This document shows, one piece after another, positions 9,210 to 61,712 of a DNA stretch of 64,000 nt. Below the pieces are notes generated by a model. It was not told where the DNA came from. It did no database searches and saw only the letters and a list, made by a program, of their open reading frames with translations. Numbering within the stretch: position 1 is the stretch's first letter; the number at the start of each line of letters is the position of its first letter. The position numbers were made by a program, and so were the translations under genes. The stretch spans positions 2,232,001-2,296,000 of the forward strand of contig NC_089434.1 of the NCBI RefSeq assembly GCF_026210795.1, given 5' to 3'. This DNA is from Rhizophagus irregularis. Taxonomy: Eukaryota.

Positions 9210-9799
9210 TATGAATTTATTTGAAGGCAAAGTTTTTTATGATTTTTTTTTTCCTGATGGCCATCAGCGAAATTATCATTCATATGTATATTTTTTTTTC
9301 GAATATGGAAAAAAGGAGTTCAGAATCAAACCAATATCAAACTAATAAAAGACCAATAATAAACTAGTTTAAAACAAATATGATATTTGAAGTATATATA
9401 TCCTAAACCTATTTTTTATTTGAATCATAATTATAGCACGTTACACTGTAAAGAAAGCGAACTACATATATGTAACACTGGTCAAAATCAATTCTATCGG
9501 GTACATATCGGGTACCTATATATCGGTGGCTAATCGGATAAATATCAGGTATTTTTACATATCGGGTACCCGATAGCTAAGCTATTAGTCACTGATATTG
9601 TATATCGGGCATTGATCTATCTTACATATATCAGGTACCCGATATGTAAATTTTAATACGTAAGATTTTTATTTTGTATAATGTACTGTATTATATATAA
9701 TCCGTTTCAACTAAAATTTTTTATTTAAATTCATTTTTTAGATAATTTTTATAAATAATTTTCTAAGAAATTTTAAAAGTCCATTTGAATAATATTTAA

Positions 9800-15700: not shown

Positions 15701-15770
15701 TCTAAGAGTTCATTTGGAAAGATTTTTTTTTGATAATTTTTAATCGAAGGGGTCATTTGGATTGAGAAAT
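9800..15770. repeat. ~80-bp satellite array with ~240-bp three-variant higher-order repeat
   Basis: Recurrent gagaattttctaaga..tttagggaaattatttttt units cycling through three variants; ends degenerate. Confidence 0.9.
11656..11955. mobile_element. 300-bp MITE inserted in the satellite
   Basis: TIRs aggaccccagatatct / agatatccggggtcct; aaatag duplicated at 11650-11655 and 11956-11961. Confidence 0.85.
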
Positions 15771-16695
15771 TTTTGTTTTTCAACGTAATTTTACCAAATT
15801 TAATTATAAATGTATTCAGGCTATAAAATAACATGTGGTAAGTTACGTTACGTAATATTGTTATCATGTGATCACATAATTTAAATATTTACATTTCGCA
15901 TTTTTGTTTATCTTATTAAAACCTTTTCTTCGTTCTCAATTTTTTTTTACTTAAAAACACAATTTTTTATCTATTTAATATATCCAGAAATACATATTTT
16001 TATATTTTTTTTTGTTTGTTATATCTAGAAATGCATAAAAAGGTATATATTACTAATATTTCTTTTCTTTATTAATGTTTTTCTACCATTTTTTTTTCGT
16101 TTCTTTCTTTTCTTTTACTAATACTCCTACTAATATATTTTTTATTATTTTTTTCTACTATATTAACATTTTTACTATTTAATATTTTCTATTAATATTA
16201 TATTACTACTGATATACGTTCTCTTTCTACTAACATTTTTTATTCTACTAACTTTTTCTTTCTGCTAATGTTTCTACTAATATTTTCTATATTTATATAT
16301 CTATACTAATATTTTTTAATAACATTCTCTTTTCTCTTACTAATATATTTATCATTAATGCTTCTTTTAAATAATCAAACAGGTATAAGCAAACAAGTGA
16401 TTTTATTTTTATGCTACTTTTAGTAGAAGTTATATATTATATATATTTATTCAAGTATTCAAGTATAATTAGTATAATTGTTTTTTTTTAATTAAAAAGT
16501 GTAAATAAATTTAAATTGTAATAAAGTTTTGAATTAAAATTAAAAAAATATATAAATTATGATTGCATTTTATAATTTTTTTGCCTGAAATAACAAACCA
16601 ATGCCAGACTAATGCCAGACCAATGTCAGACCAATATAAAATAAATTTTCTACAAGTTTTTTATTAGTATTATACAGATTTATTACTAGCAAACT

Positions 16696-17342: not shown

Positions 17343-20300
17343 TTACGCACTTTTTTTTAAGTTCTCTTCACTATTTGGGCTAGAGGAGTTGGTAGATGTT
17401 TGGTCCTGATCTTCTTTTAGCGGATCCTTGACTACCGAAGCCTTGCTAAAAGTTAGGATAATATATACCTTTCCATGTAACTTTATGCGAAACTGGTTTT
17501 TATTTAGATCGGGAACGCCTTGAACTTTTCGAATGTTTGACATATCAAAAAATAGCATTGGTTCTGTTTCACCATTATCAATACGAACAAAATTTCCAAT
17601 AACTGTGACCGTCTTATCTTCTTTATCCTTCAAAGTAACTGGCACGTCTGTATACCATCCTAATGAATCGGTGATATGCTTGGAATTGCCCTTTATAGCA
17701 AAATTAGATGGTTTATCAGCCTTCCATCCAAGCGCCTTGATTGCTGGGTCATTTATACCACTGACCGAACTCACTGGCAGTATCTAAAAAAGATTTGGAA
17801 ATAATTAAATCATTTATATTAGCATTCAGATATTGTAAAGATGACAACCACTCATCTGATTCTTTCGATTCCTCCTCCTGAGCCTTTCGAGACAAGCACA
17901 TTTTTCATATCGGTGGTGAGAGCTTGGACAATAGCTGATCGTACATTTCAGGTTGGCTAGATTCTAGGGGTGAGATTGCATTAGTATCACTGGTCAACTT
18001 ATCATTTACCTGTTTTTTTTTTCTGATGCATAATACCACCCATTTTCTACTTTGTCATAACCATCTTCCTCATTATCTGAATCTGGAGGCGTATATTGGG
18101 GCTGTGTAGATAGAAGTTGAAGATAGTAATATTGAGTAAAATTGGATTTAGCTACAGGATTTAATCTTGGGCAATTGTTTTTCTTATGCCCTTCCTGTCC
18201 ACAATTACTGCAATAAAAAGGCTTTCGAGATTGATCATTAAGTGATATCCTACCAAACTTAGATGTCATTTGACCAATTTCATCTATTTTTGATTCTAAT
18301 CTATCGATTCTAGATGATTGCAACTTTTCTGGCTTTTGCGGTTTAGGAGGTAGTCCATAAGCTTTTACGACCACTCTCATTATTTCTTCCCTAGTAAGTG
18401 TATCAGGGAAAGAATTAGCGCTTTCATATGTATCAAGAAGCTGTTCCATATTTTTATGAGGAACTGGTGGAGGTATCTTTTTAGTTTACTAGACCATTTG
18501 TGATTGGAAATCGGCTTTTTGTTTTTCTAATAAAGACTGGTATTCAGTTTTTTGCTGTGCTAGTGCATTCTGGATTGCTTTTTGCATATCTTCGAAAGAT
18601 ATTCCATGCTGTTGTGAGGCTGAAACAGGTGAAAGTTCATATATTTGCCGAGATGTTTGATTAGATACTAACAGATCAGATGTTCTATCGCTTTTATGTC
18701 TAGCTATTCGGCGTAATTCTATCTCATAAAGCTTTTTAGCTAATTCATCTAATGGCAAATGTTCACCAATATCTTCAGCTTTTTTAAGCAATAAAAGTGG
18801 TAAAGCATCTAAGAACTTTCTACGTAATTCTTCAGGTCTATAGTTGGCTCGTCTATCTATTCATAATATTTTTCTATATAATTCATCTATAGTCATGTCT
18901 CCCTTTCTAATTGTTCTATACATGAAATCCCAAAGTTCCTCTTCTACTGTAAGGAAATGAGTTTTTAGCCACCATACGGCTTGACCAAATCAAATACCAG
19001 CTATAACTACTGTATTTCCAGCATTAGCATTTGGTGCATTTACAGGAGCATTAGTAGGACGGCCACCTGCTATATGCCAGTCTTCATTCTAAGCATCTTC
19101 TACAGCTCTTAATTTGAATATTGCATTTCCTGGTTGGCCAACAGCCTCATTTAATGCATTAGCTCCTATCTGTACTGCAGTTCATCCATTTACTGCAACT
19201 AAGTTAGCCTGCCCTGTATTATCGAGTAAGTTAGTTAGCTCCCAATTCTGCTTTGTAGTAATCTCATCATCAAACCATTCTAAAGTCCTTCCTCTCATAA
19301 CGGCTTTTAAATGTCCTATTGCATTATTTCTTCCTGTTGGAGGACTTGCTGCATTATCATTTGGATCTATTCCCTGATTCTGCAAGTCTAGTCTAAGTTG
19401 TGCAAGAAAGTCTGGGATACTATCATCCCAGTCAAAATATGAATAAGGTATTCCTGCCATGTTTACTTGATTAGGTAGATTATTCTGAAGTGCCAAAATT
19501 TGTTCCTGCAAATTTAAATTATTCTGTCGCTCTGCTTGGGTCTTATTTTTCCATTTCTCGTATCGCTCATAGAGCCTATCACAATTAAATTCTAACAGAC
19601 CTATATTCCCTCTACTTCGCTGTAAGTGATGGGCATTTTGCTGATATAGCAATTGTAAGGCAAATTTTTCCTGTAGCAATATACCAATACAGATTCGCTT
19701 TCCTGTTATATTGTCTAACATTCTATTTACTTGATTTCGAGCATTGGTCCGCAACTGATAAAGGTCAGCAATAACCATTTGTTCCACTCCTTTAGCATTT
19801 TGCCTTCATATAATTTCATTATCATGCTCAGCCTCTACATCATATCGCCTTTGTTGCTCACGGACTAAATCCTAATGCAAATTATTCTCTTTTCAGCAAA
19901 TCTGCCTTGTCGCCCTTTTTATTTGATCAGCCAAGATTTCTCTACCTATTGTTGTATTATTCAGATAACCATCTATAGCATTTGCTAGCTCTGTGATGAT
20001 AGCCATTTCTAAGTTAATATTAGGATTATACAAGTCTAAAGAATTCCCTTGTTCTGGCAAATTTTTTTGTGATGAAATGGTTCTGATCCGACATCGCAAT
20101 TTCTCTACCTGTTCCTCAGAATTTACTAACTGATTTTCTATACTAGAAATATGTTTTTCATTATCACAAATATCCTTCTTAGCTTGATATAGTTGCTTTT
20201 AATTTCAGACTGGAGATTTCAGATTTTAACTCTACTATCTTTTCTTTCGAAGCATTTTCAAGGCGCTCTATCTCCCTATTGAGATCTTGAATTTTTTGCT

Positions 20301-30195: not shown

Positions 30196-33100
30196 CACAG
30201 GTCGAAGGGGCACCATTGTCCAAAATTCAAAAAATGCAAATTCCACATTTTTCTGGAAAATGGTGGGAAATTGTGGAAAATGCTGCATTACACTGAGCAA
30301 TTTTTTGGAATAACATTGTTACAATATTGTCCGATTTAGCAAATTTTATGAAAATTTGGGAAAATGCTACATTATATCTCAAATGTAACATTTTGTAACA
30401 TTTCGTAACATTGTTATAACATTGTCATTGAAATCAAATTTTGCTTTTTTTTTGTCAAATGTTCCAATTTTCTTGCAAATGGTGCATTTTTATGAAAATT
30501 CCACATTTTACCTCAAATGTAATAACATTTCATAAAATTGTTATAACATTTCAAATTTTGCTTTTTTTTGTCAAATGTTCCAATTTTCTTGCAAATGGTG
30601 CATTTTTATGAAAATGCCATATTTTATCTTCAATGTGATGTCATTGTAACAACATTTCATAAAATTGTTATAACATTGTCAATTAAAATCAAATTTTGTC
30701 AAATATTCCAATTTTCTGGCAAATGGTGCATTTTTTATGAAAATTCTATATTTTTTTGTCAAATGTTGCATATTTTCAGTAAATTTTACATTTTTTTGGT
30801 CAAATATTTCATTTTCGTCAGAATGTTAAAATATTACAATTTTTTTTTTGGAAAATGCTCAATAATATAGCATTACACTGAAAAATGTAGTATTTCACCA
30901 AATTACACTAAAAAGTATCACAATTATCACATTTTTTGGAAAATTCCACATTACATTAAATTATACTGAAAAATGTGGCACTATACTAAATTATGTGGAA
31001 TTGCACTAAAAAATACTACAATTACACTAGACAATGTAGCATTACACTAAAAAAGTACCACAATTATCATATTTTTTAGAAAATTTCACGTTATACTGGA
31101 AAATGTAACATTATGCTAGAAAATGCGGAATTGCACTAAAAAATGCGGAATTGCGCTAAAAAACACAAAAAAAATACTACAATTACACTGGATAACGTAG
31201 CATTACACTTAATTACATTAAAAATTGTTATGATAATTTTTATTTATTTGTAAAATTACGGACATTATTAAATTTATAATATTTATATTCTAACGCATTA
31301 TTTAACATTAAACACATTGTTAATATTAACAATGTATCAACACGATGCATGTGTTGTGTTGTTGTTTAATTTAATACTAAACCTTACTACTGAAGACTTC
31401 CTCTTTTTGTCACTATAAACAGGCGGAGGGAGCAGCAATGGCTCTCCCCCTATAGGTACTTTATGGCCTCTACCTATTTATAGAGGAGGGGCTTTTCGTA
31501 AAGTTATTAGATAGATATATATATATGTATATATATAAATATATATATACATCTATCATAATTAAATTAAAATTATAAAAAAAAAAAAATAATAATTTTG
31601 GGGAAAAAGTCCCTATTTATATAAAATTATGTATCACGCATATCACGTGATATTACTTAATAATTACCGCAGCTTTAGCTGCGGTATAGCGAAAAAAAAT
31701 TAAGCTTTTTTTAGTAAAAAGCTTAATTTTTTCTCACGATCTTTCAATTTCAACTTCTTTTTCTCCCCTTTCCCATTTCGTTTCCCTCCTTTCCCTCTTT
31801 CGTTCTCCTTTTTCCCATTTCATTTTCCCCTTTTCCATTTCGTTTCCCCTCTTTCCTTCTTTCGTTCTCCCCTTTCCCTTTTCTCCCTTCTCTTTTCGTT
31901 CTCTCTCCGCACTTTTCCCTTCCCTCTTTTTCTCCCTTCCCCTTCCTTTTTCCCTTTTTCCCTTCCCGGAATCGTCTTTCAGTAAAAACGAAATGGTAAG
32001 TTTTGAAGCGAAATGCTTCGAAACTTTTTTAAAATTTTTTTTTTGATTTTTTGTTGTAAGGAAACGTTTCTAACATTTCCTTTCTTTTTTAGGACTTTCG
32101 ACCTCGGAATTTGTAAACGGTTAGTTTCGAAGTTTTTCAAAACTTTTTTTTGTTTTTTAGGAAACTTTTCTAACGTTTCCTGTATTTTCTTTTTTTTGTA
32201 GGTCTTTCGGCTTGTTTCGTTCAATTCGGAATATTGAAATCGGTAAGTTTTGAGGTATTCGCCTCAAAACTTTTTTAAAAAAATTTTTTCTTTTTTTAGG
32301 AAACATTACTAATGTTTCCAATAATTTCTTTTTTTATAGGTCTTTTTGGCGTACTTGACTTAGGAAAATGAAATGGTAAGTTTTGAGGCGTTCGCCTTGA
32401 AACTTTTTTTTCTAAAATTCTTTTTAGGAAACATACTGACGTTCCCTTTCTTTTTTTTTGTAGAATTTCGGCGTTTTGACTTTGGGAAACGGGGAATGAA
32501 ATGATGGTAAGTTTCAAAGCGTTTTGCTTCGAAACTTTTAAAATAAATTTTTTTTTTTGCTTGTTATAAGGAACGTTTTTAACGATCCTTTATTTTTTTT
32601 GTGTAGGTCTTTCAGTATACTTCTTTGGGACTCGAAATGGTAAGTTTCGAAGCGTATGCTTTGAAACTTTTAAACAATTTTTTTTAATATTTTAGGAAAC
32701 ATTAACTAACATTTCTTTATTTTACTTTTTGTAGGTTCTGGATGTTAGAATGGTGGAAACGACCGGTAAGTTTCGCAATGTTGCATTGCGAAACTTATTT
32801 TTTTAATTTTTTTTTTAAAGAAACAATACTAACGTACGTTTCTTTTACTTTTTATAGGTTAAACACTGAAGCTATGAGGGAAATTTATAAGGAATTATGT
32901 AAGAAATGTTTTACGTGTTTCTTCTGACTTATCAGGGCAAGGGAAAACTGAATGGATTAAAGAGAATAGTTTCAGTAAAGGGAAATTTATACACAGCTTT
33001 TTAATAAGTGATGGTACCGGACGTTTGAATAATGGAAATCAAAACGAACCAGTAAGTTTCGCAACATTGTGTTGCGAAACTTAATTTTTTATTTTTTTTT

Positions 33101-35245
33101 ATTAAAAGAAATATTAACTAACGTTTCTTTTTTACTTTTTGTAGGTTCCAGACGTTAGAATGATGGAAACGAACTGGTAAGTTTCGCAATGTTACATTGC
33201 GAAACTTAATTTTATTAAATTTTTTTTTTTAAGAAACGTTAGCTAACGTTTCTTTTTTTTTTAGGAACGCCGGACAAAATTACGACCCGGACTTTAGGTG
33301 AAAGGTAAGTTTTTCATTTTTTTTTTGTATTTATTTATTAAATAACTTTTTTTTTACGAAACGTTAATTAACGTTTCAGTTTTTTTTATAGATCACGGCT
33401 TTGCTTCAAGGACAAGATTTCAAAGGTATTACCTTTGAAATCAATTTTATTTTTTTTTTGTTTAACGAAACGTTAGTAAACGTTTACTAGCGTTTCATTT
33501 ATCTTCTTTTTTTAGTTCATTTTCCGGTCACCTTCTAGAAGAATTTTGAAGGTAAATATAAGAACCTTCAAAATTCTTTCATTTTTTATTTTTTTTTTAT
33601 TACAATGAAACGTTTACTAACGTTTCGGTTTTCACTTTTTAGGTTCCAGGGCACCATTTCAACATTTCGAAGGTATTAGAACTTCAAAATTATTGGATTT
33701 TTGTTATGTAATGAAACGTTATTTAAAGTTTTGTTTATTTTTTGTTTTTTTTGTAGGTTAAAGGAATGGAAAAAATGAAAAGGAACGGGGGAAAACGAAA
33801 GGGGAAAAGGAAAACGAAAGGTAAAGGTAAAGACGAAAGGGGAAAGAGAAGATGAAAGAATTTGAAAAAGAAAATGAAAAGGGAAAGAGAAAGGGAAAAA
33901 CGAAATGGAGCGGGAACAAAATGAACATTTCGAAGGTATACTTCAAAATGTTTTTTTTATTTTGATTTTTTTCAATGAAACGTTTCTAACATTTTTTTTT
34001 CTTTTTTTTTTGTAGGTTTTCACTGGCTTCTATTTCGGCACTGGACATTTGATACATAAATAAATTAGAGGTGTGGATTATCCATGAATGGAACATCAGA
34101 TATCTAATGAATATAGACCAATATAGATTCTCATCGCTAAATAATAATTGTGTATTTTTTAATAAATAATATAATAAATTATAAATTATGTAAAATTATT
34201 AAATCAGTGTTTTAAATTGTCACAGCATTTACACTAAATTGTTTAAAATTATTACTAAATTTCACTCAATTGTCCAAAATTATTGCAAAATTATCTCCGT
34301 AAATGTTGCATTTATACCGTTTACACTCAATTGTCCAAAATCGGTAAAATATTTTCACTTAATTGTCTGAAATTATCCTAAATTCCACTAAATTATTCAA
34401 AAATTTAGCTAACATTTACCGAAAAAATGCAAAATTCACCACAATTTGCATTACATTTGCATAACATTGCCGAAAAAGTCACCTAAATTTTCAACAATTT
34501 ACATAACATTACTAAAAATATATTACAATTTACCACAATTTGCATTACGTTTGCATAAAATTACTAAAAATTTACTTAAATTCACCACAATTTGCATTAC
34601 GTTTACATAACATTACTAAAAATTTGACTAAATTCACCACAATTTGCACTTCGTTTACATAACATTACTAAAAATTTAACTAAATTTCACTACAATTTGC
34701 ATTACGTTTGCATAAAATTACTAAAAATTTAACTAAATTCACCACAATTTGCATTACGTTTACATAACATTACTAAAAATTTAACTAAATTCACCACAAT
34801 TTGCACTTCGTTTACATAACATTACTAAAAATTTAACTAAATTCACCACAATTTGCATTACGTTTGCATAAAATTACTAAAAATTTAACTAAATTCACCA
34901 CAATTTTCATTACGTTTGCATAAAATTACTAAAAATTTACCTAAAATTCACCTCAATTTACATTACGTTTGCATAAAATTACTAAAAATTCAACTAAATT
35001 CATCACAATTTGCAAAGATTTGCCTAAAATTTCCCACAATTTAATGATAATTTACTGAAAAATTTCTCAACATTTGAATTAGGAATTCTGTAGGAATTCT
35101 GCCATTTTGACAAAATTTGCCAAATTGTAAGTCCTCCATTATCCCAAAATTGTAACACAATTTACTCCAATTTACCGGGATAATTCTCAATTTGCCAGAA
35201 AAATTCCAGGCAAATTTTGCGACAATGACATCTGTTCGACCTGTG
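30196..35245. mobile_element. Non-autonomous CACTA/CMC-like DNA transposon, copy 1
   Basis: TIR cacaggtcgaa / ttcgacctgtg; 3-bp TSD TGG; subterminal repeats; related copy at 47474-52663. Confidence 0.9.
34430..35030. repeat. 52-bp subterminal tandem repeat
   Basis: aaattcaccacaatttgcattacgtttacataacattactaaaaatttgact units; also at ~51940-52450. Confidence 0.85.
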
Positions 35246-35580: not shown

Positions 35581-36033
35581 CTAATTATCTTTGCTTAGTA
35601 CCTCCGGCACCCTTTCAGCGGGAGGGTATACGATAACATTGATTCCCTTTTCACCACCAAAGATACGTTGGGGTTGTATAGGAAAATGAGTAAAAATGGT
35701 GTCTTGCAGTTCCATTCTTATTGCACCTTTTACTTCAAATTCACTGATGTTTCTTAAGCTATTGATTATAACACTATCAGCTATAAATGCAACCCTATAT
35801 AAAGCCAAATTGGTCGAATCTATATCTTGAAATTGATCTAGACGACGAGTTCTGATTGCCTCTGCGAGAGAAGAGACTCTATTGTTGTTAGCATTAGATA
35901 TCGTTACTTTAAAAATATCATTCACTCCCTTGTCAAAAATGAGACAGTTGAGAGTAATATCCCCACCAGCGAGAAACTTGTTAAGCTTGTCAGGAGTCTT
36001 AGTTTTATTAGATTCCTTGGTCTTATCGGACAT
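35581..36033 (-). CDS. Crinkler N-terminal (ubiquitin-like) domain protein
   Basis: ITLNCLI..IFKVTI..VSSLAEAI..LALYRV (LFLAK-like) ..INVIVYPP (HVLVxxP-like); upstream exons possible. Confidence 0.7.
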   Translation of the reverse strand: MSDKTKESNKTKTPDKLNKFLAGGDITLNCLIFDKGVNDIFKVTISNANNNRVSSLAEAIRTRRLDQFQDIDSTNLALYRVAFIADSVIINSLRNISEFEVKGAIRMELQDTIFTHFPIQPQRIFGGEKGINVIVYPPAERVPEVLSKDN

Positions 36034-36769
36034 CTTGCTTTCCTAAATACAAGGTCCATAGTGAGAAAACTCGCTCCTATACATACATAACTTCTAGCAT
36101 ATACATACCTTATTTTGCGTTATTTTACGGGAAAGTTTTTTGCGGAAAGTTGGCTGAACTTCCACATACCCCTACATGCTTTATATCTTGCTGGGAAAAA
36201 GAGCGCCAAGCCGAAGTTAAGGAAGTATGAGGCGTAATTAGTATTGTTGTCTGATGCCAAGAGTCCTTTGAAAGCACATGCAAATGGAATCTTCATACCT
36301 TTTCACATGGAGATCTACCAGAGATAAAGATATTAGCCTTAATTATTTTTTAAAAAATTTTGAATTACGGCTATAAGATTTTTATAGCCTTAATTAATTA
36401 CAGCATATAAAAATTTTGTATTACGACACTTTTTTGAATTACGGCTAACATCTTTAACCGGAGAGACGCAAAGGTAGTTAGTTCTTGTAGATCTCGAAAT
36501 TTCAAAGTCCTCAGCCTTTCATAACATATGCTTTTGTCGTCACTATTAACTTATAGGGTAGGTACTGTGTTGCATGTAGACCTCCTTTCAAGCGAAGCGC
36601 CTATGAAGCAGGCCATTTTTCTCATGTTTGTTCAGGGAAAAATAGAGGTACTAGTTAGCATACATAACTCAGTATGTAAAGAAATAATGTTTTACAAACT
36701 GACCGTGTGATTGGCCATTACATCATTGCACAGAAATCTATGGCTCAGCAAATTCTTCCGAGCTGAAGA

Positions 36770-37852: not shown

Positions 37853-39079
37853 TTAATAACTATACATATTGATAATTTCAGATATTTCATCATTTTCTGT
37901 AGACTCCGATTTTAGGTCTGAGTTATGCTCATCTTCAGGTCCGGAGTCTTCTAATTCTGTATCGCCTATAGTATAATTATCACCTGCATCAAGACGGTCA
38001 GATTCTTGCCTCATTGCGATTCTCAAAAGCAATTTAAGATGTTGGGGGGTTGGATTTTTGCCACCATGAACTCTGGAAGCATGTTTAAATCCATAATCTC
38101 TTAAATTTTTAGGTATGGTTCTATAAGGTTCTTGCTTCAAGAATTCATTAAATGGCCAAGCACTACGTGTCCCACTTTCAGTAAAGACAGGGTCAGATAA
38201 CTTTTTAGCCTTAATTGTATCTTGAATCCAGGTAAGCAATTCTCTTGCGCGTTCTGGATTCTTTTCCATAGAAAGAAGTGGACAAGGGATTCTTCCATCT
38301 GCCTTCTTATATCCTGTACAATACCAAGAATATCCCTCTTTATACCATGCTGGAATATTCGAAAGATCAATCCCAAGTAGTTCATCTGGCTCATAGTGCT
38401 TAATTTGAAGAGATGTTACTTCTGAAGGTCTTATACTCAACATCACTATCACATCTGCAAGATCCTCTCTAGTAGGAATTTTACTAACATCCATATTTTG
38501 GATCCTCTTTTGCACATTTGCTAAGGAGAAATGTATGGGAATTCTATCTGGATTAGCCATTCGCTTCTTAGTTCGCTTTTTTTGAATTTTGTTAGAGTCT
38601 TGAATAAGTTCCTTATCTTTGGCAAATGCTTCAATAATTGCAGGATCTACACCGCCTTCTGCTAACTTCACACGGAATGTTGACTGACGTGAAACACCGG
38701 CAACGATTTCCTTTTCATTTTTATTTTTCGGACTCACTGCCCAATGATTAGCGATAATGTTAACAAAATCACCGGCCTTAGCACAATATTCTGCCCTTCC
38801 TTCTATAGTGAGGTTTTTCTTTCTCTTATCTGGTAGGAGAGCCTCTATTTTCTCTTTACTAAATGAATGTTTAGGTTTAGCAAGAGCTACCTTAACACAT
38901 CTACGGGCCATCCAATCTGGAAGTAAAGCATCTAGTTCGGGAGCATGTTCGCTCAATTGTTCTGGAATGGAGCTAGCCGACAAATTACATTTTTCCAGGA
39001 ACTGCTCTAAGATGCTGACATAGTTATTAGTTTTAGGTTTTCGAGTCTTTAGAGCGGTTGCTTTAGTAGCCATGTACAT
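37853..39079 (-). CDS. Tyrosine-recombinase-fold protein, protelomerase (telomere resolvase)-like
   Basis: Uninterrupted 408 aa; ordered motifs SIRPSEV (R), CTGYKK (K), PKNLRDYG (R), AMRQ (His position), DNY (Y). Confidence 0.65.
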   Translation of the reverse strand: MYMATKATALKTRKPKTNNYVSILEQFLEKCNLSASSIPEQLSEHAPELDALLPDWMARRCVKVALAKPKHSFSKEKIEALLPDKRKKNLTIEGRAEYCAKAGDFVNIIANHWAVSPKNKNEKEIVAGVSRQSTFRVKLAEGGVDPAIIEAFAKDKELIQDSNKIQKKRTKKRMANPDRIPIHFSLANVQKRIQNMDVSKIPTREDLADVIVMLSIRPSEVTSLQIKHYEPDELLGIDLSNIPAWYKEGYSWYCTGYKKADGRIPCPLLSMEKNPERARELLTWIQDTIKAKKLSDPVFTESGTRSAWPFNEFLKQEPYRTIPKNLRDYGFKHASRVHGGKNPTPQHLKLLLRIAMRQESDRLDAGDNYTIGDTELEDSGPEDEHNSDLKSESTENDEISEIINMYSY

Positions 39080-39215: not shown

Positions 39216-39515
39216 TTGAATATCTATAATAAAAGTGAAGACGAAGTTTTAAGAATATTAATATCAAAATTACCTTGTATGGGTCGTTTTATTTGCCAAT
39301 ACATCAAGAGAGATGGTTCGATTTGTGGGAAAGGGTGCATGAGTGAATTAGGGTGTGCCAGACATTTTAATGCCCTTTCTAAAACAATATGCCCTATCTG
39401 TGGGCAGGGAACCTATTTCAAGACCGGAATCTGTAGTACACATGGTGGAATTTATGACTATGCCTGGCGCGAAAGTAAAAAAACTGAAACAAAATCTAAT
39501 ATGGTCAAGACTTAA
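39216..39515 (+). CDS. Small Cys/His-rich zinc-finger-like protein (probable ATG at 39279)
   Basis: CQYIKRDGSICGKGC..CARH..CPICG..CSTH. Confidence 0.5.
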   Translation: MNIYNKSEDEVLRILISKLPCMGRFICQYIKRDGSICGKGCMSELGCARHFNALSKTICPICGQGTYFKTGICSTHGGIYDYAWRESKKTETKSNMVKT

Positions 39516-39559: not shown

Positions 39560-42500
39560 GAATCAAAGAGTTCCTGAATATCGTTATCTGGTTTTGGCCT
39601 ATATGGTGGAAGTTCTGGTGCATCTTTATCTCCAAAACCAGTACTGTTATATGGCTGGCGATTAATTCGATATGAATATTACCTAACTTGTTGTCCTTTA
39701 GGCCCTATTCTTTTTTTATCACTTTTTTGCATTGATTGCCTTTATAGCTGAATTAAGATCTGGTGTTGTCTTAGCATGAGACTTAAAGCCAAAGAGTGAT
39801 AAAAACTGATTTCGAATTTCTATAAATCTTTCACAGGATTGCACGAATGCTTCTGATACAATATTACCAGGAAGGATACGTTTATCATCAATGCTGGTAA
39901 AGCCTAATATTTGAAAGAGTTCTCTTATAGCCTTCCAATGATTTGCTGAATAAGATTTACGCAAGTCTTCTGCCACTGATTTTTCCAGATTCTCTTCAGC
40001 TTTATGGCAGGCCATTTCCCATTGTACATTTTCCTCAGTTTTCAATCCCTTCATTGCATTCTTCTCATCATGACCTTGCCTTCGGAAATAAGACAATTGT
40101 AAGAAATGCTTCTGAGCTTCAGGCGAACTAAAATTTTTAACGAATTTTCTATTGCAAATATTATCCCAATCCTCAATACTCATGTCTTTGCAATAAATAT
40201 TTCGCATATAAAAACGTTAAGTACTATAGTATCTGCGATAGAGTGCTCTTGGTCGAATTTAAGGTCTTTAAGGCTAAGATTTTGAGAAGTAGCAACTGCA
40301 TTAAAATCCGTTTCTTTAATAACTAATGCTAACCTCATTATGGATTCTTTTACGGTTCCCTATAACTCCTCGACTTTTATACATTTTTATTAGTTAGAGA
40401 GAAGCGCCAGTACTAGCTATAAGACTACAAAGCTTCTCAATAAAGTATCTCGCAGAAAGGCGTTTCTGATGCTTAACTTCAATAAATATTATTACAGCTG
40501 GAGATTCATCAATTTTATAAGAAATGGTATTGTTATCCTATTTACGATGACCTTTTATTGCTGTAGGTAAGTTATTAGGCCGAGCACTTTCAAGTTCTGC
40601 CCTAATATTTTCACGACCTGATGGGCAAAAAAGTTCGTTAGAATTTTTCTGATAGAATATAGAAACAATACGGCGAGAACAATCACGAATTCAATAAAGC
40701 ATTTGTGCAAAAGCTTCGACATGAACTGGAGTGGCGATGTTTGTAATAGCTATAACTATATCGAAGTGACCTGTAACCTCGAATGATATTCCTGCCTCCA
40801 TTATATTTGTATAAGCTATACAGTCAAGCTCACTCCAAGCGACATTAATATCAGAAAAGTCTTTTTGACGTTGTTTTCCATCCATATCTCCATAATAAGC
40901 ACAGGCTCTAACAGGCGAATTATCAGGTTTAGACAACTTAGATGCTTTTTCCACTAACGCTCTAGCTATCACCACTCCGGTAAATACAAATGCCACACGC
41001 TTACCCTGCCTCAAAAGGTCATATCCTATTCGCATAACTTCTGCTCCACTATTTGAATCATAAATAAATTCAACCGTCTCACCTATACGAGGCTGATACT
41101 TATTATCGACTACGCGAATATTTTCACCACAATAAATCTGGAGGAAGGTTAGTGTTGAGATATTTGCGAAGGCATCTATGGCCAAAACATGCATTGCAGA
41201 TCTTAAGACATCACGCATTGCGTTTTCAGATTCCCGTGCATTTGTACCGCTAAACATTTGGCGCATAATGGCATTAGATTCATCGAGAATAGCTACAAAC
41301 GGACGGGCTGTGAATTCGACACGAAAGAGGCTTTCAACCTGTACTATGATAATATCCCACTCATTTATAGATAAGTCTCCTTGCATATTTTGGTAGTTGC
41401 AAATTTGGAAGCCAGATGCTTTTAACTCATTAAGTTTGGATTTTGATTCATTGCTAAGAGACTTTCGGTAAAAGATCCAGATATAACATGGTAAAAAAGA
41501 AATATCATGTACTTTATCTTTCAATGCCATAATAATCTCTCTTAATGTAGTGGTTTTCCATGTCCTCAGAGGAGAACGAATAAGTGTTGTCATTTTCTCA
41601 ATACCCAAGAAATCAGAATATACTTCCAAAGCATCCTTTAATTTTTCTACATTAATTGCCATTTCTGATAATTCTATAAGAGGGCGTGGATTTGATATAG
41701 CATCACCTATTCTTTCGACTATTCCTCTCTTAGGTTTTGTAGAAATTTCAGTCACTTTTCCAAATGCTAATCCCTTATGATCTGGCTTATATTGATTTTG
41801 CTGATAGCATTTAAGTACAAAATGGCCGTTACTTCGAAGAAAGCTATATAATTGATCTCTTTCATGTTTGATTCCGCAAATAGGACATGCTTCATATAAC
41901 TTTGCTTGGAAGTTGACAAATCCCTTTTTAATATGGCCAATTTCAAGCCACTCATATTTTGCTGTAACTAAACCAGCTCTCTTGCTTAAAGCGGTTTCAT
42001 CTTCGATAGGTTGGAATTCATCCTTTTCTAGCTTTTCAGAAGAAAAGGTCTGTTGCCAGATTTCAGAATAATCAGATTTAGGTTGAACTAAATAATCTTC
42101 TAGCTTGTGATATCCTTGTTTAACTGAAGAAACCACGGGTCTTTTAACTCTATCTTCCTTTGCCGATCCAAGAAGCTGAAGACTAAAACGTGATTTATAA
42201 AGTCCAAGGTCAATAAATTCAGAATATGGTTTTCCAATCTTATCAGCAACTTTTTTCACAAATCCTCTAAAGTCTCTGTAGTCAACGAACCGTGCATATT
42301 TATACATGATATGCCAGCTACATTTATCAGAATTAGACGAACTGGCTAAGGCAAAAGCATCTAATATTGCAAAATGTTTTAAGTCAAAATATAAGATATC
42401 GGTGCAGGCAATTAAGATTCTGGATAATAAATCTTCACGAGAACTTTTACTTCCATCTAAGGAAGGGAGTTCAGGATTCATAGGATTGGGGTTCTGCCTC

Positions 42501-42817
42501 GCATCAATATCCAGAACCAGACAGAGAGGCAGATTCCCATCAATGCACTCGTGAGTATCAGGAATCCCATAAATTTCAGATGGATGATCAACTATCGTAA
42601 AACCCTTTTCTGACACTCGAACTATATATTTTGAATAAATCTCTTCAGGATGATAGGCTTCTAGAAGAGAAATATCATTTTTATTATTGGACAAATATTG
42701 AAAATACACATGATCATTGTAACCAGGCTCAAAATCAAGGTCGGCTAAACCAGAGAAGAGCCTGGTTGCATCATTTATTGTTTTAGGGCTAGAGCTGCGG
42801 TTTTTTTGCGCAAGCAT
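39560..42817 (-). pseudogene. AEP/PrimPol primase fused to a Zn finger and UL9-like (origin-binding) SF2 helicase
   Basis: VLDID, KCSWH, IDLGLY (AEP motifs); CPIC..H..C; IRSPLRTWKT, VQVESL, ILDE, AQMLY*IRD; stop at 40691, collinear fragments to ~39560; ATG lies inside the right TIR. Confidence 0.85.
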
Positions 42818-44151
42818 GGTATATGTGCAAGAAAGCAGTATAAAATAACAGAGAAACTTGGAAAGTTTAAAATAAAAATTTTATATAATTTTGAGCGAAT
42901 ATGCTTGCTAGTAAAATACTGGGTTAGTGGTAGTACCCAGCGCCAAGCCAAGAGAAAGTAAACGATGTGGTAGTACCCCAAAGTGATCGATGTGGTAGTA
43001 CTTCAAAGTGGTCGATGTGGTAGTATCCTAAAGTATCCCAGAGTAGTAACTATACGGGAAAGGGTTCTAGAAAGGCAGAAGCGAAAAATAAAATATAAAA
43101 TTGGTAGTACCCCAAGTTAGAATAATATATAGGAAAGAGAAATAAGAAATTACAACTTGGGGTACTACCGCCGATAGGCAAAAAGGGGTCAGGAAGGTGG
43201 AAAGTCTCAGGAGAATATACAAAAAAAGGTATAAAAGCAATATAGCCTGAAATAATTCAACACTTCGCATGTGCCTCACTCAGCAATCAAAAAGGTCATA
43301 CAAGGCGGAATTGCAAGAATGGGCATAACACTAACACTTCGCATATGCCTCATCCCCGGCATTCAAGAAATGGCAATTTGAGAGGGAAAATATATGGATT
43401 GCAAGTTCGGCACTTCGTGCCTCAACCTGGCAATCGAATGGGAACATAAAAGTATGATTGCAAGTAAGTTCGGCACTAATTCCTGGTAATTACATAGGCT
43501 GATCTTGGTACTTCCGATTCTTTAACCATCTGATCCTTCAGACAGAACCTCGAAAGTAGTGGGAATGTGACGGAGAAGTGGTGGGAAGGTTCTGGGAACG
43601 CACCTCGCACATGTTTTTTTTGCGCAGTAAATTAACAATAATTTTGGCCAAAACTTTGGACAATAACTCGGCATCCAAGAAGTGATCTTAAACTGGCAAA
43701 CTAATAGAAACACTCTGATTTCCTACCAGTTCCCTGCCAGTTCCATGATGATTCCATGACACTACTACAGCACTATCATGTCACCAAGCTGGAACCTAAA
43801 ATCACATGCTCAAAAGATCAACCAGAAATTATGCCATAATGCCAGCCAAAAACTGATCCGCAAATTTACTGCGCCACCTGACTGCAACATGATTTTTTGC
43901 AATCAATACTGGCCTAGCATCTTGGCAATAAAAAGGCCATAGAGCAATGAAAACAAGCGGATAGTTAGAAGGAAATAAAAAGAGGACAGAGCAATAAAAT
44001 TAAGTGGATAGCAATAAAGCAATAATAAGACCACAGAACACTAAAAACAGTAACTAGGTAACATTATACTCATAACTAGAAAACATTATACTCATAACTA
44101 GATAACATTATAGCGCAACTAGTTAACGCTCTTATAAGAGCGTTAACTAGT
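42786..44151 (-). repeat. Right terminal inverted repeat
   Basis: Reverse complement of 3358-4733. Confidence 0.95.
44118..44151. other. Perfect 34-bp terminal palindrome (right)
   Basis: actagttaacgctctta|taagagcgttaactagt. Confidence 0.95.
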
Positions 44152-44467
44152 TTAGTTAACTAATTGTACCTATGAATTACCAAGCTATAAATAGGTTCTT
44201 AAATGTGAACCTTTACCCTAAGTCAAATACAAAGACAAATCAGCCCATATGATTTATAATTTTTATTAATTATTATTTTATTTATAATCTATATATTTTT
44301 AATTATAAATTATAAAAATTGACAGTTTAATTTATATTAAATCGTGATCCATGAATGATCGACATCAGATCATATGATTTGTATATAGTAAATTTGGGGT
44401 TAAGATATATAATAACTAGCTATAATAAATTTAAATCTCTCATTGACAACCTTTAACAACCATCAAA

Positions 44468-47400: not shown

Positions 47401-50400
47401 TAAAACAAAATTAAGTACCATTACGGAAATATCCAATCTGCAAGAATGGACATAGCCCATGAATGAAGAAAAACACAGGTCGAAGGGGCACCATTGTCCA
47501 AAATTCAAAAAATGCAAATTTCACATTTTTCTGGAAAATGGTGGGAAATTGTGGAAAATGCTGCATTACGCTGAGCAATTTTTTGGAATAGCATTATTAC
47601 AACATTGTCCGATTTAGCAAATTTTATGAAAATTTGGGAAAATGCTACATTATATCTCAAATGTAACATTTTGTAACATTTCGTAACATTGTTATAACAT
47701 TGTCATTAAAATCAAATTTGCTTTTTTTTTGTCAAATGTTCCAATTTTCTTACAAATGGTGCATTTTTATGAAAATTCCACATTTTATCTCAAATGTAAT
47801 AACATTTCATAAAATTGTTATAACATTGTCAATTAAAATTAAATTTTGCTTTTTTTTTGTCAAATGTTCCAATTTTCTTGCAAATGGTGCATTTTTATGA
47901 AAATGCCACATTTTATCTTCAATGTGATATCATTGTAACAACATTTCATAAAATTGTTGTAACATTATCAATTAAAATCAAATTTTGTCAAATATTCCGA
48001 TTTTCTGGCAAATGGTGTATTTTTTTATGAAAATTCTATATTTTCTGTCAAATGTTGCATATTTTCAGCAAATTTTACGTTTTTTTGGCCAAATGTTTCA
48101 TTTTTGTCAGAATGTTAAAATGTTACATTTTTTTTGAAAATGCTCAATAATATTGCATTACACTGGAAAATGTAGCATTTCACCAAATTACACTAAAAAG
48201 CATCACAATTATCACATTTTTTGGAAAATTCCACATTACATTAAATTATACTAAAAAATGTAGCACTATACTAGATTATATAGCATTACACTAAAAAATA
48301 CCGCAATTACACTAGACAATGTAGCATTACACTAAAAAGTACCACAATTATCATATTTTTTAGAAAATTTCGCGTTATACTGGAAAATGTAACATTATGC
48401 TAGAAAATGCGGAATTGCACTAAAAAACGCGGAATTGCACTAAAAAACACAAAAAAATACTACAATTATACTGGATAACGTAGCATTACACTTAATTACA
48501 TTAGATAATTTTTATTTATTTGTAAAATTACGGACATTATTAAATTTATAATATTTATATTCTAACGCATTATTTAACATTAAATTCACATTGTTAATAT
48601 TAACAATGTATCAACACGATGTGTTGTTTAATTTATACGAAACCTTACTACTGAAGACTTCCTCTTTTTTGTCACTATAAACAGGCGGAGGGAGCAGCAA
48701 TGGCTCTCCCCTATAGGTACTTTATGGCCTCTACCTGTTTACAGAAGAGGGGCTTTTCGTAAAGTTATTAGATAGATAGATATATATGTATATATATAAG
48801 TATATATATACATCTATCAAAAAAATTATAATAAAAAAAAAAAATTTTTTCAGGAAAATGCCCCTATTTATACAAAAATATATATCACGTGTATCACATG
48901 ATATTACTAATAATTACCGCAGCAGGCGCAGCTTCAGCTGTACCTGCTGCGGTATAGCGAAAAAAAATTAAGCTTTTTTAGCAAAAGCTTAATTTTTTTT
49001 TCTCACGTCCCCTTTCTTTCGACATTTCTTTCTCACCTTTCCTTTCCCCTTTCCCTTTCGTTCTCCCCTCCCTTTTCGTTTCATTTTCCCCTTTCCCCTT
49101 TTGTTCTTCCTCCCTTTTCGTCCTTTTCCCTTTCATTTTTCACTTTCCCTTTCCACTTTCTCTTTTCGTTCTTTTTTTTCCCTTCCCTTCCCCTTTTATC
49201 GTAAATTAGAAATATCAGAAATTTCCTTTCAGAAAAACAAAAGGGTAAGTTTCGAATCATTTCGAAACTTTAATATTTTTTTTTTATTTTTTAGGAAACG
49301 TTTCTAACGTTTCCTATATCTTCTTTTTTTTATAAGTCTTTTCGCCGTATTCAACTTGGAAAAACGAAATGGTAAGTTTCGAGGCGTTCGTCTCGAAACT
49401 TTTTTAAAAAAATAGTTTAATTTTCTATTTTTAGGAAACATTACTAACGTTTCCAATAATTCTTTTTTTTTTATAGGTTTTTTTGGCGTACTCGACTTAG
49501 GAAAATGAAAGGGTAAGTTTCGAGGCGTTTGCCTCGAAACTTTTTTTTCTAAATTGTTTTTAGGAAACATACTGATGTTTCCTTTCTTTTTTTTAATAGA
49601 ATTTTCAGTGTTTTGGCTTTAGAAAACGAGAAACTGAAGGGTAAGTTTCGAAGCGTTTCGCTTCGAAACTTTTTAATTTTTTTTTTAATTTTTTGTAAGG
49701 AAACGTTTCTAAGTTTCCTTTTTCTTTTTGTAGGAATGCCAGACATTTGGATGATGGAATCGAAATGAACCGGTAAGTTTCGCAACGTTGCATTGCGAAA
49801 CTTAATTTTATTAAATTTTTTTTTAAGAAACGTTAGCTAACGTTTCTTCTTTTTTTTGTAGATACACTCTGGGTTCCTTCCGATATTGGATTTCGGTTAG
49901 GTTTCGAAGTTTCGTTTCGAAACTTCGATTCTTTTTTTTATTTTTAAAAGGAACATTACTAAATACTAACGTCCTTTATTCTTTTTTGTAGGTTCCGGTG
50001 CTCCAGGATTCTGAAATGGAAAATGTAAGTTTCGTTTAACGAAACTTAATATATTTTTGTTTTTTTTAATTAAGAAACGTTCTAACGTTTCTTTTAACTT
50101 TTTTTTTGTAGGTTCCAGTACTCCAAGATTCTGAAACAAAAAATGTAAGTTTCGTTTAACGAAACTTAATATATTTTTGTTTTTTTTTTAATTAAGAAAC
50201 GTTCTAACGTTTCTTTTAACTTTTTTTTTTGTAGGTTCTGGTACTCCAAGATTCCGAAACAGAAAATGTAAGTTTCGTTTTAACGAAACTTATTATATTT
50301 TATTTTTTTTTAATTAAGAAACGTTCTCTAACGTTTCTTATACTTTTTTTGTAGGTTCCGGTGCTCCAGGATTCCGAAATGGAAAATGTAAGTTTCGTTT

Positions 50401-53400
50401 TAATGAAACTTATTATATTTTATTTTTTTTTTAATTAAGAAACGTTCTTTAACGTTTCTTTTACTTTTTTTTGTAGGTTCCGGTGCTCCAGGAGCGTAAA
50501 TTCATTAGACTATACCTGGAATAAACCAACACTAGATTATTAGGTCTTTTTAAAAATGTTAAAAGACCTGTGAGAACGCCAAGTTTCAGCATGAATATTC
50601 ATTAATGACTCTCCTCGATTCCGAAACGGAATAATGTAAGTTTCATTTTAGCGAAACTTATTATATTTTTATTTTTTTTTAAATAAAGAAACGCTCTAAC
50701 TTTTTTTTTACTTTTTTTTTGTAGGTTCAAGTGCTCCAGGATTCCGAAACGGAAAAATGTAAGTTTCGTTTAACGAAACTTATCTTTTTTGTTTTTTTAA
50801 TTAAGAAACGTCCTAACGTTTCTTTTACTTTTCTTTTCTTGTAGGTCTCCAAGTCAGGTGTCATTGGAAAGTGAAAATGGTAAGTTTCGCAATGAAACTT
50901 ACCGTGTTTTATTTTATTTTTTATTATTAGAAACATTTTTTAACATTTCTCTTTTGTTTTTTTTGTAGATTCGAGCGGGATACTTGACTTTGGTAAGTTT
51001 TGCAACATAAACGTTGCGAAACTTAATTTTTTTTTAATTTTTTTTTAAGAAACGTTCTAACGTTTCTCTCTTTTTTTGTAAATCGATTTTGGGAGTCTGA
51101 TTGATCTGGAGTTCCCTCCCTCCAGTTTCAGTCTTGGGTTTGGATAATGTTTAGGTTTTAAAGTATAACTTCGAAACTTCAGTTTGAATGGTGAGTTTCG
51201 TGACAAATATCACGAAACAAGTTTTTTTTGATTTTTTTTATTAGGAACCGTTTACTAATGTTCTTTTTCTTTTTTGTAAGTTCGGGATATCTGGGAAGCT
51301 AACTTAGGAAACATGAATCGCGTAAAACCATTGTTGAATAGAAGCCATTACTTTCCGTTCAGGTATTGGATATAGCTTGGTAAGTTTCGTACATTTCGTT
51401 ACGAAACTCCTGTTTTTTCTTTAAGAAACGTTCTAACTGAACGGTTTTCTTTTTTTGTAGATTATTGTAATGAAATAACAAAAGTAAACAGTTCTTTGGC
51501 TCCTTGCTTAGTGAGTTTCGAAGATTAACCTTTGAAACTTTTTGTTTTTTTTATGTTTGTTTTTCTTTAACATTATTGTACTTAATTACATATTATAATT
51601 GAAGAATTAGATAAATTGTTAATAAAATTAAAATCATAATAAATTGTTATAAAATTTGCATAAAATTACGCCAAATTGTTGCTTAATTATCACTCAATCG
51701 TTAGAAATTGTCTTAAAAATATTGCATTTGCACTCAATTGTCCAAAAATTTTCAAACCATTGTCACTCAATTGTTTAAAATTGTTAAAATTTTTCTAGCA
51801 TTTGAAAGTTGAATTTTGGTAAAATGGTTCATTTTTCCAAAATTTGACAAAAAAAATGCACAATTTACCAGAATTTTCCTGGTAAATTGTGCAACAATGG
51901 AAAATTTTTATTTCAAATTTGCAATTTACGTATCATTACAAAAAATTCATCACAATTTACATAACATTGGCCTAATATTGCTAAAAATTCACCACAATTT
52001 GAACTTCGTTTACATAACATTAACTAAATTCACCACAATTTGCATTACGTTTGCATAAAATTACTAAAAATTTGACTAAATTCACCACAATTTGCATTTC
52101 GTTTACATAACATTACTAAAAATTTAACTAAATTCACCACAATTTGCATTACGTTTGCATAAAATTACTAAAAATTTAACTAAATTCACACAATTTTCAT
52201 TATGTTTGCATAAAATTACTAAAAATTTGACTAAATTCACCACAATTTTCATTACATTTACATAAAATTACTAAAAATTTATTAAATTCGCATGAATTTT
52301 CATTACATTTACATAAAATTACTAAAAATTTGACTAAATTCACTACAATTTGCATTACGTTTACATAAAATTACTAAAAATTTGCCTAAAATTTACACAA
52401 TTTACATTACATTTACATAACATTACTAAAAATTTACCTAAAATTTCCCACAATTTAATGATAATTTACTGAAAAATTTCTCAACATTTGAATTAGGAAT
52501 TCTGTAAGAATTCCGCCATTTACATTGCAAAATTTGCCAAATTGTGTATCCCTCCATTATCCCAAAATTGTAACACAATTTACCCCAATTTACCGGGATA
52601 ATTCTCAATTTGCCAGAAAAATTCCAGGCAAATTTTGCGACAATGACATCTGTTCGACCTGTGAAAGTTAGTTATATTTATGCATAATGTAACTGAGGGA
52701 ATAGGAGAGTGGAAGGAATGGTCACTGAAAATATAGAAAAGATTGTTAAAAAGCGAAAAATTGAAAAACTAAATCCTACTTTTACACCACATACACAATT
52801 TACCAAACAATGGACCATGCCAATTTTGAATAAAGAAAGTGAGTTTACCTGTTTGCCATATTTATTTCTAAATATAGATAACATATTTGCTTGTTAGACG
52901 AACAGGATCCAATACAGGGTGAATCGGTAGGTGATATTAATTCTAGAATTTTTATTATATGAATTTCTTGATTATAAATCAATCCAATTATTTACAAAAC
53001 CAAATACTCGTTGATCTGACTAATCTGGAAAATAATGTAAATAATGGATCTCCAGAAACTAAGAGGTAAAATATTATATAATTGCATTTTAATTGTTGAT
53101 TATATTATATTATTTATTTTTTTATTTTTTTTTTGAAGTTAACAAGTATTTATCAGTGGATGGGCTCTAAAAGAAAATGAAAAGACTCGTCAACGTGGAC
53201 CAATAAAAAGAATATCTCAATAAGTAAAGCATCTTTTAGAATCAATGTTCCATACTGGAACAGCAAATCCTCATCAAAAATTAAATGTACAACAGATGCA
53301 TGAAGAACTGCTGAGACGTACAGAACTTGGCGAAATTGAAGAAAGTGACATACCTAAAGTATCTACAATAACAAACTGGATTTCAACTTTTTCACGTAAA

Positions 53401-60791: not shown

Positions 60792-61712
60792 CATATGGGC
60801 TGATTTGTTTACTCTGCATTAAAAAGAGTTATTGATTGATTTTCACAATTTTTGTTATTCAAAATTGTTTTGTAATACCAAAAAATCATCTGATTGATGA
60901 TCACTTGACTACATAATAAGTTGAACAAAAATTTACATTTGCGAAACTTAAATTATTAAATGTAAAAGAGCTGTGAAAAAACCCATTTCACTAATAAAAA
61001 ACCCATTTCTCATATGTATGGAATTTTTAACATATATTATTAAAAAGTAAGTATATTTTAATAAAATATAAAGTAAAATAAAAATGTATATAGCCTTAGT
61101 AGCTATAAATGTTTATAAAAGTATAATAAAAATATCATATAAAAGATGGTATCATAATAGATATTTTAATAATTATTTTATGTCAGAGTTTGTATTACCA
61201 TCTTTAAACGCAAATATATCAAGATTCACTGATCTGTTTTCTATAATTTTAGGCTTGTTGGAAAGCCCTTGTTTTGGACTTTATAGGCGAAAAAAGAGCT
61301 CGCCGATTGAATCATTAGATCCAGAGATATTTACATTTAAAGTTAAGGTATGAACTTTTTAACATGCTTAAATGCAAATATCTTGGGATCCACTAATCCA
61401 TTTTTTATAAATTTAGGCTCTTTGGAAAGCCTTTGATCTGGTCTATATGAACGAAAAAAGAGCTTGCCAATTGGATCACTGGATCTGGAGATATTTACGT
61501 TTTAAGTTAAGATACAAATTTTTAACATATATAGTAAGTGCTAAGAATTATATTAATTTAAAAGAAATATTTACCAAATTATAGTATAATAACATTAAAT
61601 AAAAATTTTTTAATACTCATTTCCAATTTACTGTATATTATATAGTATTTTGTATAATAAAAATGTAATAAAATTAATATTTTAATTAAAGGTAGACAAA
61701 TCAGCCCATATG
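60792..61712. mobile_element. Non-autonomous TIR element, inverted copy of the 571-2406 family
   Basis: Same catatgggctgatttgt TIRs; reverse complement of 571-732 plus 1632-2406. Confidence 0.85.

Follow-up and report, generated by a model that had tools for sequence, protein, structure and literature searches.

The genome of Rhizophagus irregularis contains an intact reading frame that raises the question of whether a fungal mobile element encodes a telomere resolvase and whether such an enzyme could act on palindromes at the ends of the element. Telomere resolvases have been described in bacteria and their phage-plasmids and also in certain algal giant viruses. We analyzed a stretch of 64,000 nucleotides of contig NC_089434.1 (assembly GCF_026210795.1, positions 2,232,001 to 2,296,000, forward strand; hereafter the window), and all coordinates given below are those of the window. 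A preliminary description had called the product of the reading frame protelomerase-like and had proposed palindromic targets for it. The gene and its predicted active-site codons are located as follows.

37853-39079, minus strand: telomere-resolvase-like (protelomerase-like) gene, an intact ORF of 408 aa
37973-38431, minus strand: predicted active-site codons, whole set, from conservation, with the register to ResT from a weak hhalign match
38429-38431, minus strand: R217 codon, predicted active site, from conservation
38303-38305, minus strand: K259 codon, predicted active site, from conservation
38108-38110, minus strand: K324 codon, predicted active site, from conservation
38099-38101, minus strand: R327 codon, predicted active site, from conservation
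38006-38008, minus strand: Q358 codon, predicted active site, from conservation
37973-37975, minus strand: Y369 codon, predicted active site, from conservation

The protein consists of a helical N-terminal part, a long linker helix (residues 156-175), a catalytic domain (approximately 180-372), and an acidic tail. The five ordered motifs listed in the preliminary description were all located, namely, IRPSEV (216-221), GYKK (256-259), KNLRDYG (324-330), AMRQ (355-358), and DNY (367-369), and the intervals given there, 31 residues from R327 to Q358 and 11 from Q358 to Y369, were borne out. The spacing of ResT, which had been given as about the same, agrees for the second interval (H324-Y335, 11) but not for the first (R296-H324, 28, which is 3 short of 31); in TelN, the intervals from the second Arg to His and from His to Tyr are 33 and 9, respectively. 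The catalytic residues of ResT are R199, K224, Y293, R296, H324, and Y335, among which K224, Y293, H324, and Y335 are confirmed in the accessible part of PMC11317167, and those of TelN are R275, K300, K380, R383, H416, and Y425. A weakly scoring hhalign comparison places the predicted active site of the ORF in register with R199, K224, R296, and H324 of ResT.

Conservation was counted in 133 homologous proteins, using those with a residue in the respective column. R217 was kept in 121/124, K259 in 92/93, R327 in 96/99, R357 in 91/91, and Y369 in 89/90. At position 324, three residues ahead of the second Arg, where telomere resolvases have Lys or Tyr, Lys was found in 74 of 99 homologs, as in TelN (K380), and His was outside the four commonest residues. 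The family therefore keeps an R-K-(K)xxR-Y set, and position 358 is divided: the equivalent His, which is invariant across six aligned protelomerases, is present in 51 of the 89 homologs with a residue there, and the Gln of the window protein is shared by the other 38.

Neither the protein nor its alignments produced an informative hit in Pfam, PHROG, NCBIfam, or PDB sequences, the PF16684 HMM hit neither the window protein nor its alignments or family members, and a family HMM showed no significant match to TelN and ResT. Hhalign against six protelomerases scored 0.5% with no useful alignment; a separate run scored 0.8% (E 0.067) and, across 207 columns, placed R, K, R, and Q/H opposite one another. 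A catalytic-domain model (residues 136-378), for which 64 sequences of the family and none of a bacterial enzyme were used, reached a pLDDT of 84 and a pTM of 0.76. Against 48,161 PDB representatives, just four chains scored Z of at least 8, and all of them were telomere resolvases: two chains of TelA (Z 10.0, rmsd 5.9, 192-193 residues aligned), ResT (Z 9.2, rmsd 3.5, 135 aligned), and TelK (Z 9.2, rmsd 4.1, 163 aligned). The next best score was that of SroF (6.3), with integrases and Xer at 6.1 or lower and topoisomerases IB at 4.9 or lower. Rescoring of the Foldseek hits reproduced this order; over the two comparisons, Z values were 9.2-10.4 for telomere resolvases versus 6.3 or lower for recombinase-type proteins. 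The rmsd of TelA to the predicted model was 5.6-5.9 Å across comparisons, and identity in the structural alignments to telomere resolvases was approximately 10-12%. The TelA alignment begins at TelA residue 177 and includes the TelA linker (198-217), which the accessible text of PMC3558466 ties to hairpin refolding.

In Foldseek's own ranking, TelA came first (prob 0.99) at a non-significant E of 0.02, and among viral models the telomere resolvase of EhV-86 was the top hit, also non-significant (E 0.18). In the ESM Atlas, the best named hits of the window protein were PF16684 clusters (0.95), and the distant homolog P0268 likewise led to PF16684 clusters (0.98, 195 shared features). A full-length AlphaFold model (pLDDT 66; catalytic part approximately 50) yielded generic helical hits in fold searches and was set aside. 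The comparison with TelA/TelK on one side and Cre/XerD/Crypton recombinases on the other, which the preliminary description had suggested, did not refute it on the predicted model: TelA, ResT, and TelK outscored integrases, Cre/Xer, Flp, and topoisomerase IB, among structural hits that contained no Crypton, DIRS, or Starship recombinase and so allow no head-to-head comparison with those. The family motif is KxxR, not the HxxR of Crypton/DIRS/Starship-type recombinases, and DUF3504 was absent from the window protein and from the 25 (of 47) Pfam families listed for 67 members. The fold of the ORF product is predicted to be of the telomere-resolvase type, and the modeled structure makes it very probable that the protein is a telomere-resolvase homolog.

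We then asked on which DNA such an enzyme might act. The gene is carried by a 40.8-kb element (3358-44151) with 1.37-kb TIRs, which is the one complete element seen; its ends are composed of the following features.

3358-4733, plus strand: left TIR, approximately 1.37 kb, 95-96% identity to the right TIR
42786-44151, minus strand: right TIR, holding the replicase start codon (42817)
3358-3391, no strand: left terminal perfect 34-bp palindrome with the centre TTATAA, candidate resolution site
44118-44151, no strand: right terminal perfect 34-bp palindrome, candidate resolution site; 36 bp (44117-44152) with one flanking pair
3397-3458, plus strand: three 22-bp subterminal repeats with CTAGTTA in common with the palindrome arm; mirror copy at 44051-44112
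4405-4587, plus strand: five GTACTACC-like repeats at the inner end of the left TIR, mirrored in the right TIR

Both 34-bp end palindromes of the preliminary description were found, the right one being longer when its flanking pair is counted. Their reported co-location with the ORF holds in that all belong to the same element, but the gene is not adjacent to them, lying 5.0 kb and 34.5 kb away. The two palindromes sit exactly at the outer tips of the TIRs and are the longest perfect palindromes in the window, with arms of 17 and 18 bp (the next is 12). Block-shuffled versions of the sequence (20 in number) had longest arms of 7-13, and elsewhere in the window the centre motif is absent. A single symmetric pair of CpG-type changes distinguishes the left palindrome from the right one. 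In the left TIR, 10 of 38 CpG sites are deaminated, and the symmetric difference could arise from two independent CpG deaminations, with a chance that we estimate at approximately 3-7%. The 22-bp subterminal repeats are candidate protein-binding sites, and the GTACTACC-like repeats are candidate origin or promoter sites. The right terminus was seen in one RNA run (2 reads), and no strand-changing joint at a palindrome was listed among the contigs, which cannot show hairpins.

Besides the resolvase-like gene, the element contains these genes.

6240-7471, minus strand: rve/Polinton-type integrase-like gene, frameshifted, in two pieces, with DDE-type motifs by eye
7497-8210, minus strand: A32-like packaging ATPase, broken, in two consecutive pieces, with a weak match to Pfam Pox_A32
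39719-42817, minus strand: replicase gene, broken, with a UL9-like SF2 helicase and in-frame stops (PF02399, E 7e-15)
39216-39515, plus strand: small ORF rich in Cys/His, in divergent orientation to the resolvase gene, with the adjacency kept in relatives

The gene at 6240-7471 matched nothing in Pfam, NCBIfam, or PDB and nothing informative among the PHROGs, and we take it to be an rve-like integrase from DDE-type motifs recognized by eye. The Pox_A32 hits on 7497-8210 (E 0.0055 and 0.01) cover profile positions 13-35 and 128-166 and are collinear, below the curated cut-off. The replicase also matched phrog_4913 (E 3e-11) and, below the cut-off, CyRepA1 (E 2e-19), and its N-terminus has primase-like motifs and a degenerate-looking Walker A by eye. 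RepA of N15 matches phrog_4913 end to end, and direct BLASTP of the element replicase against N15 RepA was not significant. Since the integrase, ATPase, and replicase genes are broken, this genomic copy is dead, and the resolvase gene is the sole intact ORF of these. Neither pPolB nor a double jelly-roll capsid was found by Pfam in 38 + 119 reading-frame pieces from outside the two repeat blocks and the low-complexity frames, and no protease was detected in the element; the absence of pPolB and capsid possibly reflects loss or divergence in a decayed copy.

The interior also holds an array of ~81-bp satellite units (9700-16400, >60 copies, with a higher-order periodicity of 242 bp). The satellite is broken by an 85-bp inverted repeat (11710-11901; 82%, 22-bp spacer) that resembles 61454-61498 and is possibly a small MITE. 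The broken, gag-like region at 17343-20198 (minus strand), which includes a CCHC zinc knuckle (PF00098, E 0.00017), is probably a nested retroelement remnant, and a fragment of a Crinkler N-terminal domain, from a common AMF multigene family, lies inside the element as well (35581-36042, minus strand; PF20147, E 1.6e-11). An AT-rich repeat block, which contains many short hairpins as well as a 52-bp array, is present within the element (30196-35245) and again beyond it (47474-52663), at approximately 80% identity. A second inverted-repeat pair (570-2406 and 60792-61713; 777 bp at 95% and 163 bp at 99%) surrounds the whole element and may represent either an inverted duplication or the TIRs of an outer element.

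In a region so rich in repeats, the gene and the palindromic ends might come from different nested elements and be chance neighbors, as the satellite in the interior (9.7-16.4 kb) and the recurrence of interior repeats outside (30196-32853 versus 47474-50103, at 80%) would allow. The replicase start codon, however, lies inside the right TIR, and the order of replicase end, Cys-rich ORF, and resolvase is retained down to approximately 50% protein identity (locus L010). Synteny upstream of the resolvase gene was found in 9 of the 12 related loci with upstream DNA (5 of 17 were without it), and two of them extend to the replicase end. We regard a chance association as very improbable.

The flanks of the element carry a short duplication, identified by flank comparison.

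3353-3357, plus strand: 5-bp target-site duplication TTAGT, left copy
44152-44156, plus strand: 5-bp target-site duplication TTAGT, right copy

Among duplication lengths of 3-9 tried at the flanks, 5 bp alone fits. In 3/3 DNA runs, contigs join left-flank sequence straight to a single TTAGT and then to the right flank; because they are paralogous host-repeat copies, these contigs show the empty target state and not the same locus. Contigs of 83 bp that cross the right junction include 29 letters of the element, below the 31-letter bar. One X8 contig has the arms TAACAGTCTA and TAGACTGTTA about one base, and an X8 contig with ACTGGATAA is the mirror of X6 contigs that end in TTATCCAGT ahead of a different flank. 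These contigs hint at paralogous termini with different yet symmetric arms, the X8/X6 pairing being one that spans runs.

The same ends could be explained if the protein were the integrase or excisionase of the element, in the style of Crypton, Starship, or phaeovirus enzymes, with TTAGT as the crossover core and the palindromes as binding arms on a circular intermediate. Its fold is that of the tyrosine-recombinase superfamily, TTAGT matches the last five bases of the element (CTAGT) at 4/5 positions, and the rve-like gene is without HMM support. Such a role is nevertheless improbable in our judgment, given the separation in Z between telomere resolvases and recombinase-type proteins, the KxxR motif together with the DUF3504 result, the long TIRs and the adjacent integrase-like/A32-like pair, which suit Polintons, and the different flank that follows a paralogous end in two X6 contigs. 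The 5-bp target duplication and the separate rve-like integrase point to a different enzyme for insertion; neither feature, nor the decay of this copy, figures in the preliminary description.

If the protein is a telomere-resolvase homolog, its Gln358 has to be accounted for, which the preliminary description had already raised as a caveat. The Gln is real: its codon is covered by contigs with 0 differences in 4/4 sequencing runs from four studies, which rules out a sequencing error. A check of His versus Gln in relatives, also proposed earlier, gave the 51 and 38 of 89 noted above and placed Gln in one clade, which rules out a private decay mutation. A quick tree was drawn from the window protein and 81 distinct motif-picked segments from 304 proteins (82 rows in total); in it, all 25 Gln rows fall on one side of a branch with a support of 88, and 24 of them on one side of a branch with a support of 98; P0243, outside the tree, also carries Gln. 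The weight of the caveat is softened, because Gln is clade-wide and Asn is reported at the His position in active bacterial topoisomerases IB in the accessible part of PMC2666729; Gln358 is thus old, common to its clade, and no clear proof of death. For residues 180-372, dN/dS of the window ORF against 17/17 related loci was 0.25-0.48, and against three Gln-type loci 0.28-0.44, which indicates that the Gln clade is evolving under purifying selection. The 17 metagenome loci are 1.2-3.5 kb each, none of them reaching a terminus, and 7 of the 17 have stops within the catalytic region.

The protein might instead be a protelomerase relative that no longer forms hairpins, either a dead DNA-binding protein (the Gln clade) or a swivel or dimer resolvase acting elsewhere, with the palindromes as by-products of fold-back priming or of hairpin opening in transposition. 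The change from His to Gln at a catalytic position speaks for this, as do the fold-back ends that belong to Maverick replication models. The other four catalytic residues are kept, however, with the constraint on Gln-type loci described above, the Gln clade covers several genera, Asn at this position fits activity in the topoisomerases IB just cited, and topoisomerase IB folds score far below protelomerases. A non-resolving derivative therefore seems unlikely, although less so than an integrase, and for the Gln clade we lean slightly toward catalytic activity.

A single-sequence search gave 133 homologs, and among the 120 listed, every species-named one is from Glomeromycota; the genera include Rhizophagus, Gigaspora, Dentiscutata, Cetraspora, Diversispora, Ambispora, Entrophospora, and Geosiphon. 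When 50%-identity representatives were searched with a profile, 405 proteins matched at E<=0.001; among the 150 listed are a compact clade that lacks the insertion following the first Arg and three divergent proteins (P0262, P0266, and P0268). Together with P0304, these are divergent, Ala/Gly/Arg-rich homologs from ENA and Logan contigs, three of the four keeping His and Tyr by eye, and they suggest that the family reaches outside AMF. The Gigaspora margarita homologs P0008, P0025, and P0035 bear the NCBI name "highly derived D5-like helicase-primase," which looks mis-transferred. No locus with the gene, replicase, ATPase, palindrome, or subterminal repeat was found in the scanned viral contigs, and none in the prokaryotic genomes scanned.

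From the anatomy of the element, we infer that the terminal palindromes are resolved by the enzyme. It is reasonably probable that the predicted telomere resolvase cuts and reseals the 34-bp end palindromes and that free copies of the element are linear and hairpin-ended; that the family as a whole acts on terminal palindromes is a little more probable still. In the best model, a Polinton-like element would be inserted by an integrase and replicated as an N15-style hairpin-ended linear molecule by means of the predicted resolvase. Copying of the hairpin-ended molecule by the primase-helicase and a host polymerase would give a dimer, in which the palindrome is remade at each head-to-head junction. 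A dimer of the enzyme would then make staggered cuts about TTATAA via Tyr369 and reseal two hairpins, like TelN, TelA, and ResT. The separate rve-like integrase would insert the element by cutting 17 bp past the axis of the replicated junction; alternatively, it could nick the hairpin end 17 nt from the tip, with fill-in by the host. By either route, both ends would retain the full palindrome, and a 5-bp duplication would result. With a complete resolution site at each integrated end, the resolvase could also release the element. Resolution in place at both ends implies a break in the host chromosome, which is a difficulty for the model and may be bearable in a multinucleate host.

Taken together, the ORF most likely encodes a homolog of telomere resolvases, and the fungal element around it is Polinton-like, decayed, and equipped with candidate resolution sites at its ends. 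A far-reaching version of this reading, to which we give somewhat less than an even chance, is that AMF host widespread, undescribed integrating elements with bacterial-style hairpin telomeres and a dedicated resolvase, a eukaryotic nuclear counterpart of N15. In these elements, an N15-RepA-like primase-helicase would replace the protein-primed polymerase, the integrase would store a full site at each end, excision and capping would occur in one step, and the Gln-for-His clade would be working. If true, hairpin-telomere chemistry would extend to fungal mobile DNA through a family that is invisible to Pfam and annotated as "hypothetical," and would offer a possible answer to how ends are copied in Polinton-like elements without a protein-primed polymerase. 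The resolvase family would also help to make sense of some of the repeats in AMF genomes that are as yet unclassified; its His/Gln split would be a natural test of the catalytic set, and its members might supply new resolvases that use a short AT-rich site in the production of closed linear DNA. With a defined enzyme and a defined substrate, the claim can be tested directly.

The enzyme is of a known kind, whereas the layout of the element is one for which we found no description in the literature searched. The predicted catalytic fold and linker helix resemble those of TelA (Agrobacterium; 4dwp, 4f43, and 4e10), ResT (Borrelia; 8vs5), TelK (phiKO2; 2v6e), TelN (N15), and PF16684. The R-K-R-(H)-Y order is that of telomere resolvases, the spacing from H to Y is 11 in the window family, ResT, and TelA, and the candidate substrate is likewise a perfect palindrome. 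At the first Arg, the RPxEV of the window protein is like ResT, and the G-x-x-K ahead of the Lys is like TelN. The window family, whose activity is predicted, differs from telomere resolvases in the residues inserted between its first Arg and Lys, in ALRH/AMRQ for LGH, and in its eukaryotic host. As in N15-type linear phage-plasmids (repA + telN + telRL), the resolvase gene goes together with a neighboring RepA-like replicase and a palindromic site, and the helicase match to the N15 RepA family makes this pair an echo of N15. However, N15 does not integrate and has a single internal 56-bp site, whereas the fungal element has its candidate sites at both ends of an integrated TIR element.

Long TIRs, a short target duplication, and an integrase-like gene adjoining an A32-like ATPase are shared with Maverick/Polinton elements and Polinton-like viruses; by contrast, the AC...GT termini with full palindromes and the telomere-resolvase-like enzyme are unlike them, as is the lack of a detected pPolB, capsid, and protease. 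In the accessible part of 10.64898/2026.06.19.733378, pPolB is replaced by primase-helicase genes in group 2 Polinton-type members. The same part and those of PMC8502044 and PMC11075540 mention Polinton-like genes or Mavericks in AMF without a resolvase, and the words "resolvase," "protelomerase," and "hairpin" have 0 occurrences in 10.64898/2026.06.19.733378. No description of a fungal or Polinton-borne telomere resolvase of this family was found in the literature searched, whose coverage excludes most subscription journals, Repbase, and supplements, so that an earlier entry is possible. The Glomhopper/CryptonA elements of Glomeromycota share the host group and the enzyme superfamily but, in the accessible part of PMC13465315, have DUF3504 and an R-H-R-Y tetrad, whereas the window protein has no DUF3504 hit.

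Among eukaryotic elements, the phaeovirus endogenous giant viruses of Ectocarpus have a telomere resolvase and long-read support for a telRL-like site (PMC13236599, accessible part). They and the EhV-86 resolvase are likewise cases of eukaryotic integrated DNA with a telomere resolvase and a telRL-like palindrome; unlike the fungal element, the phaeovirus elements are giant viruses that integrate at CC by means of a separate tyrosine recombinase, with one internal linearization site and no TIR-terminal sites. The cyanobacterial PAST transposons, as described in the accessible part of 10.1101/2024.11.13.623437, pair a transposase with their own protelomerase. These are bacterial, TnsBCQ-based, one-ended, and telomeric, whereas the fungal element is two-ended and chromosome-internal.
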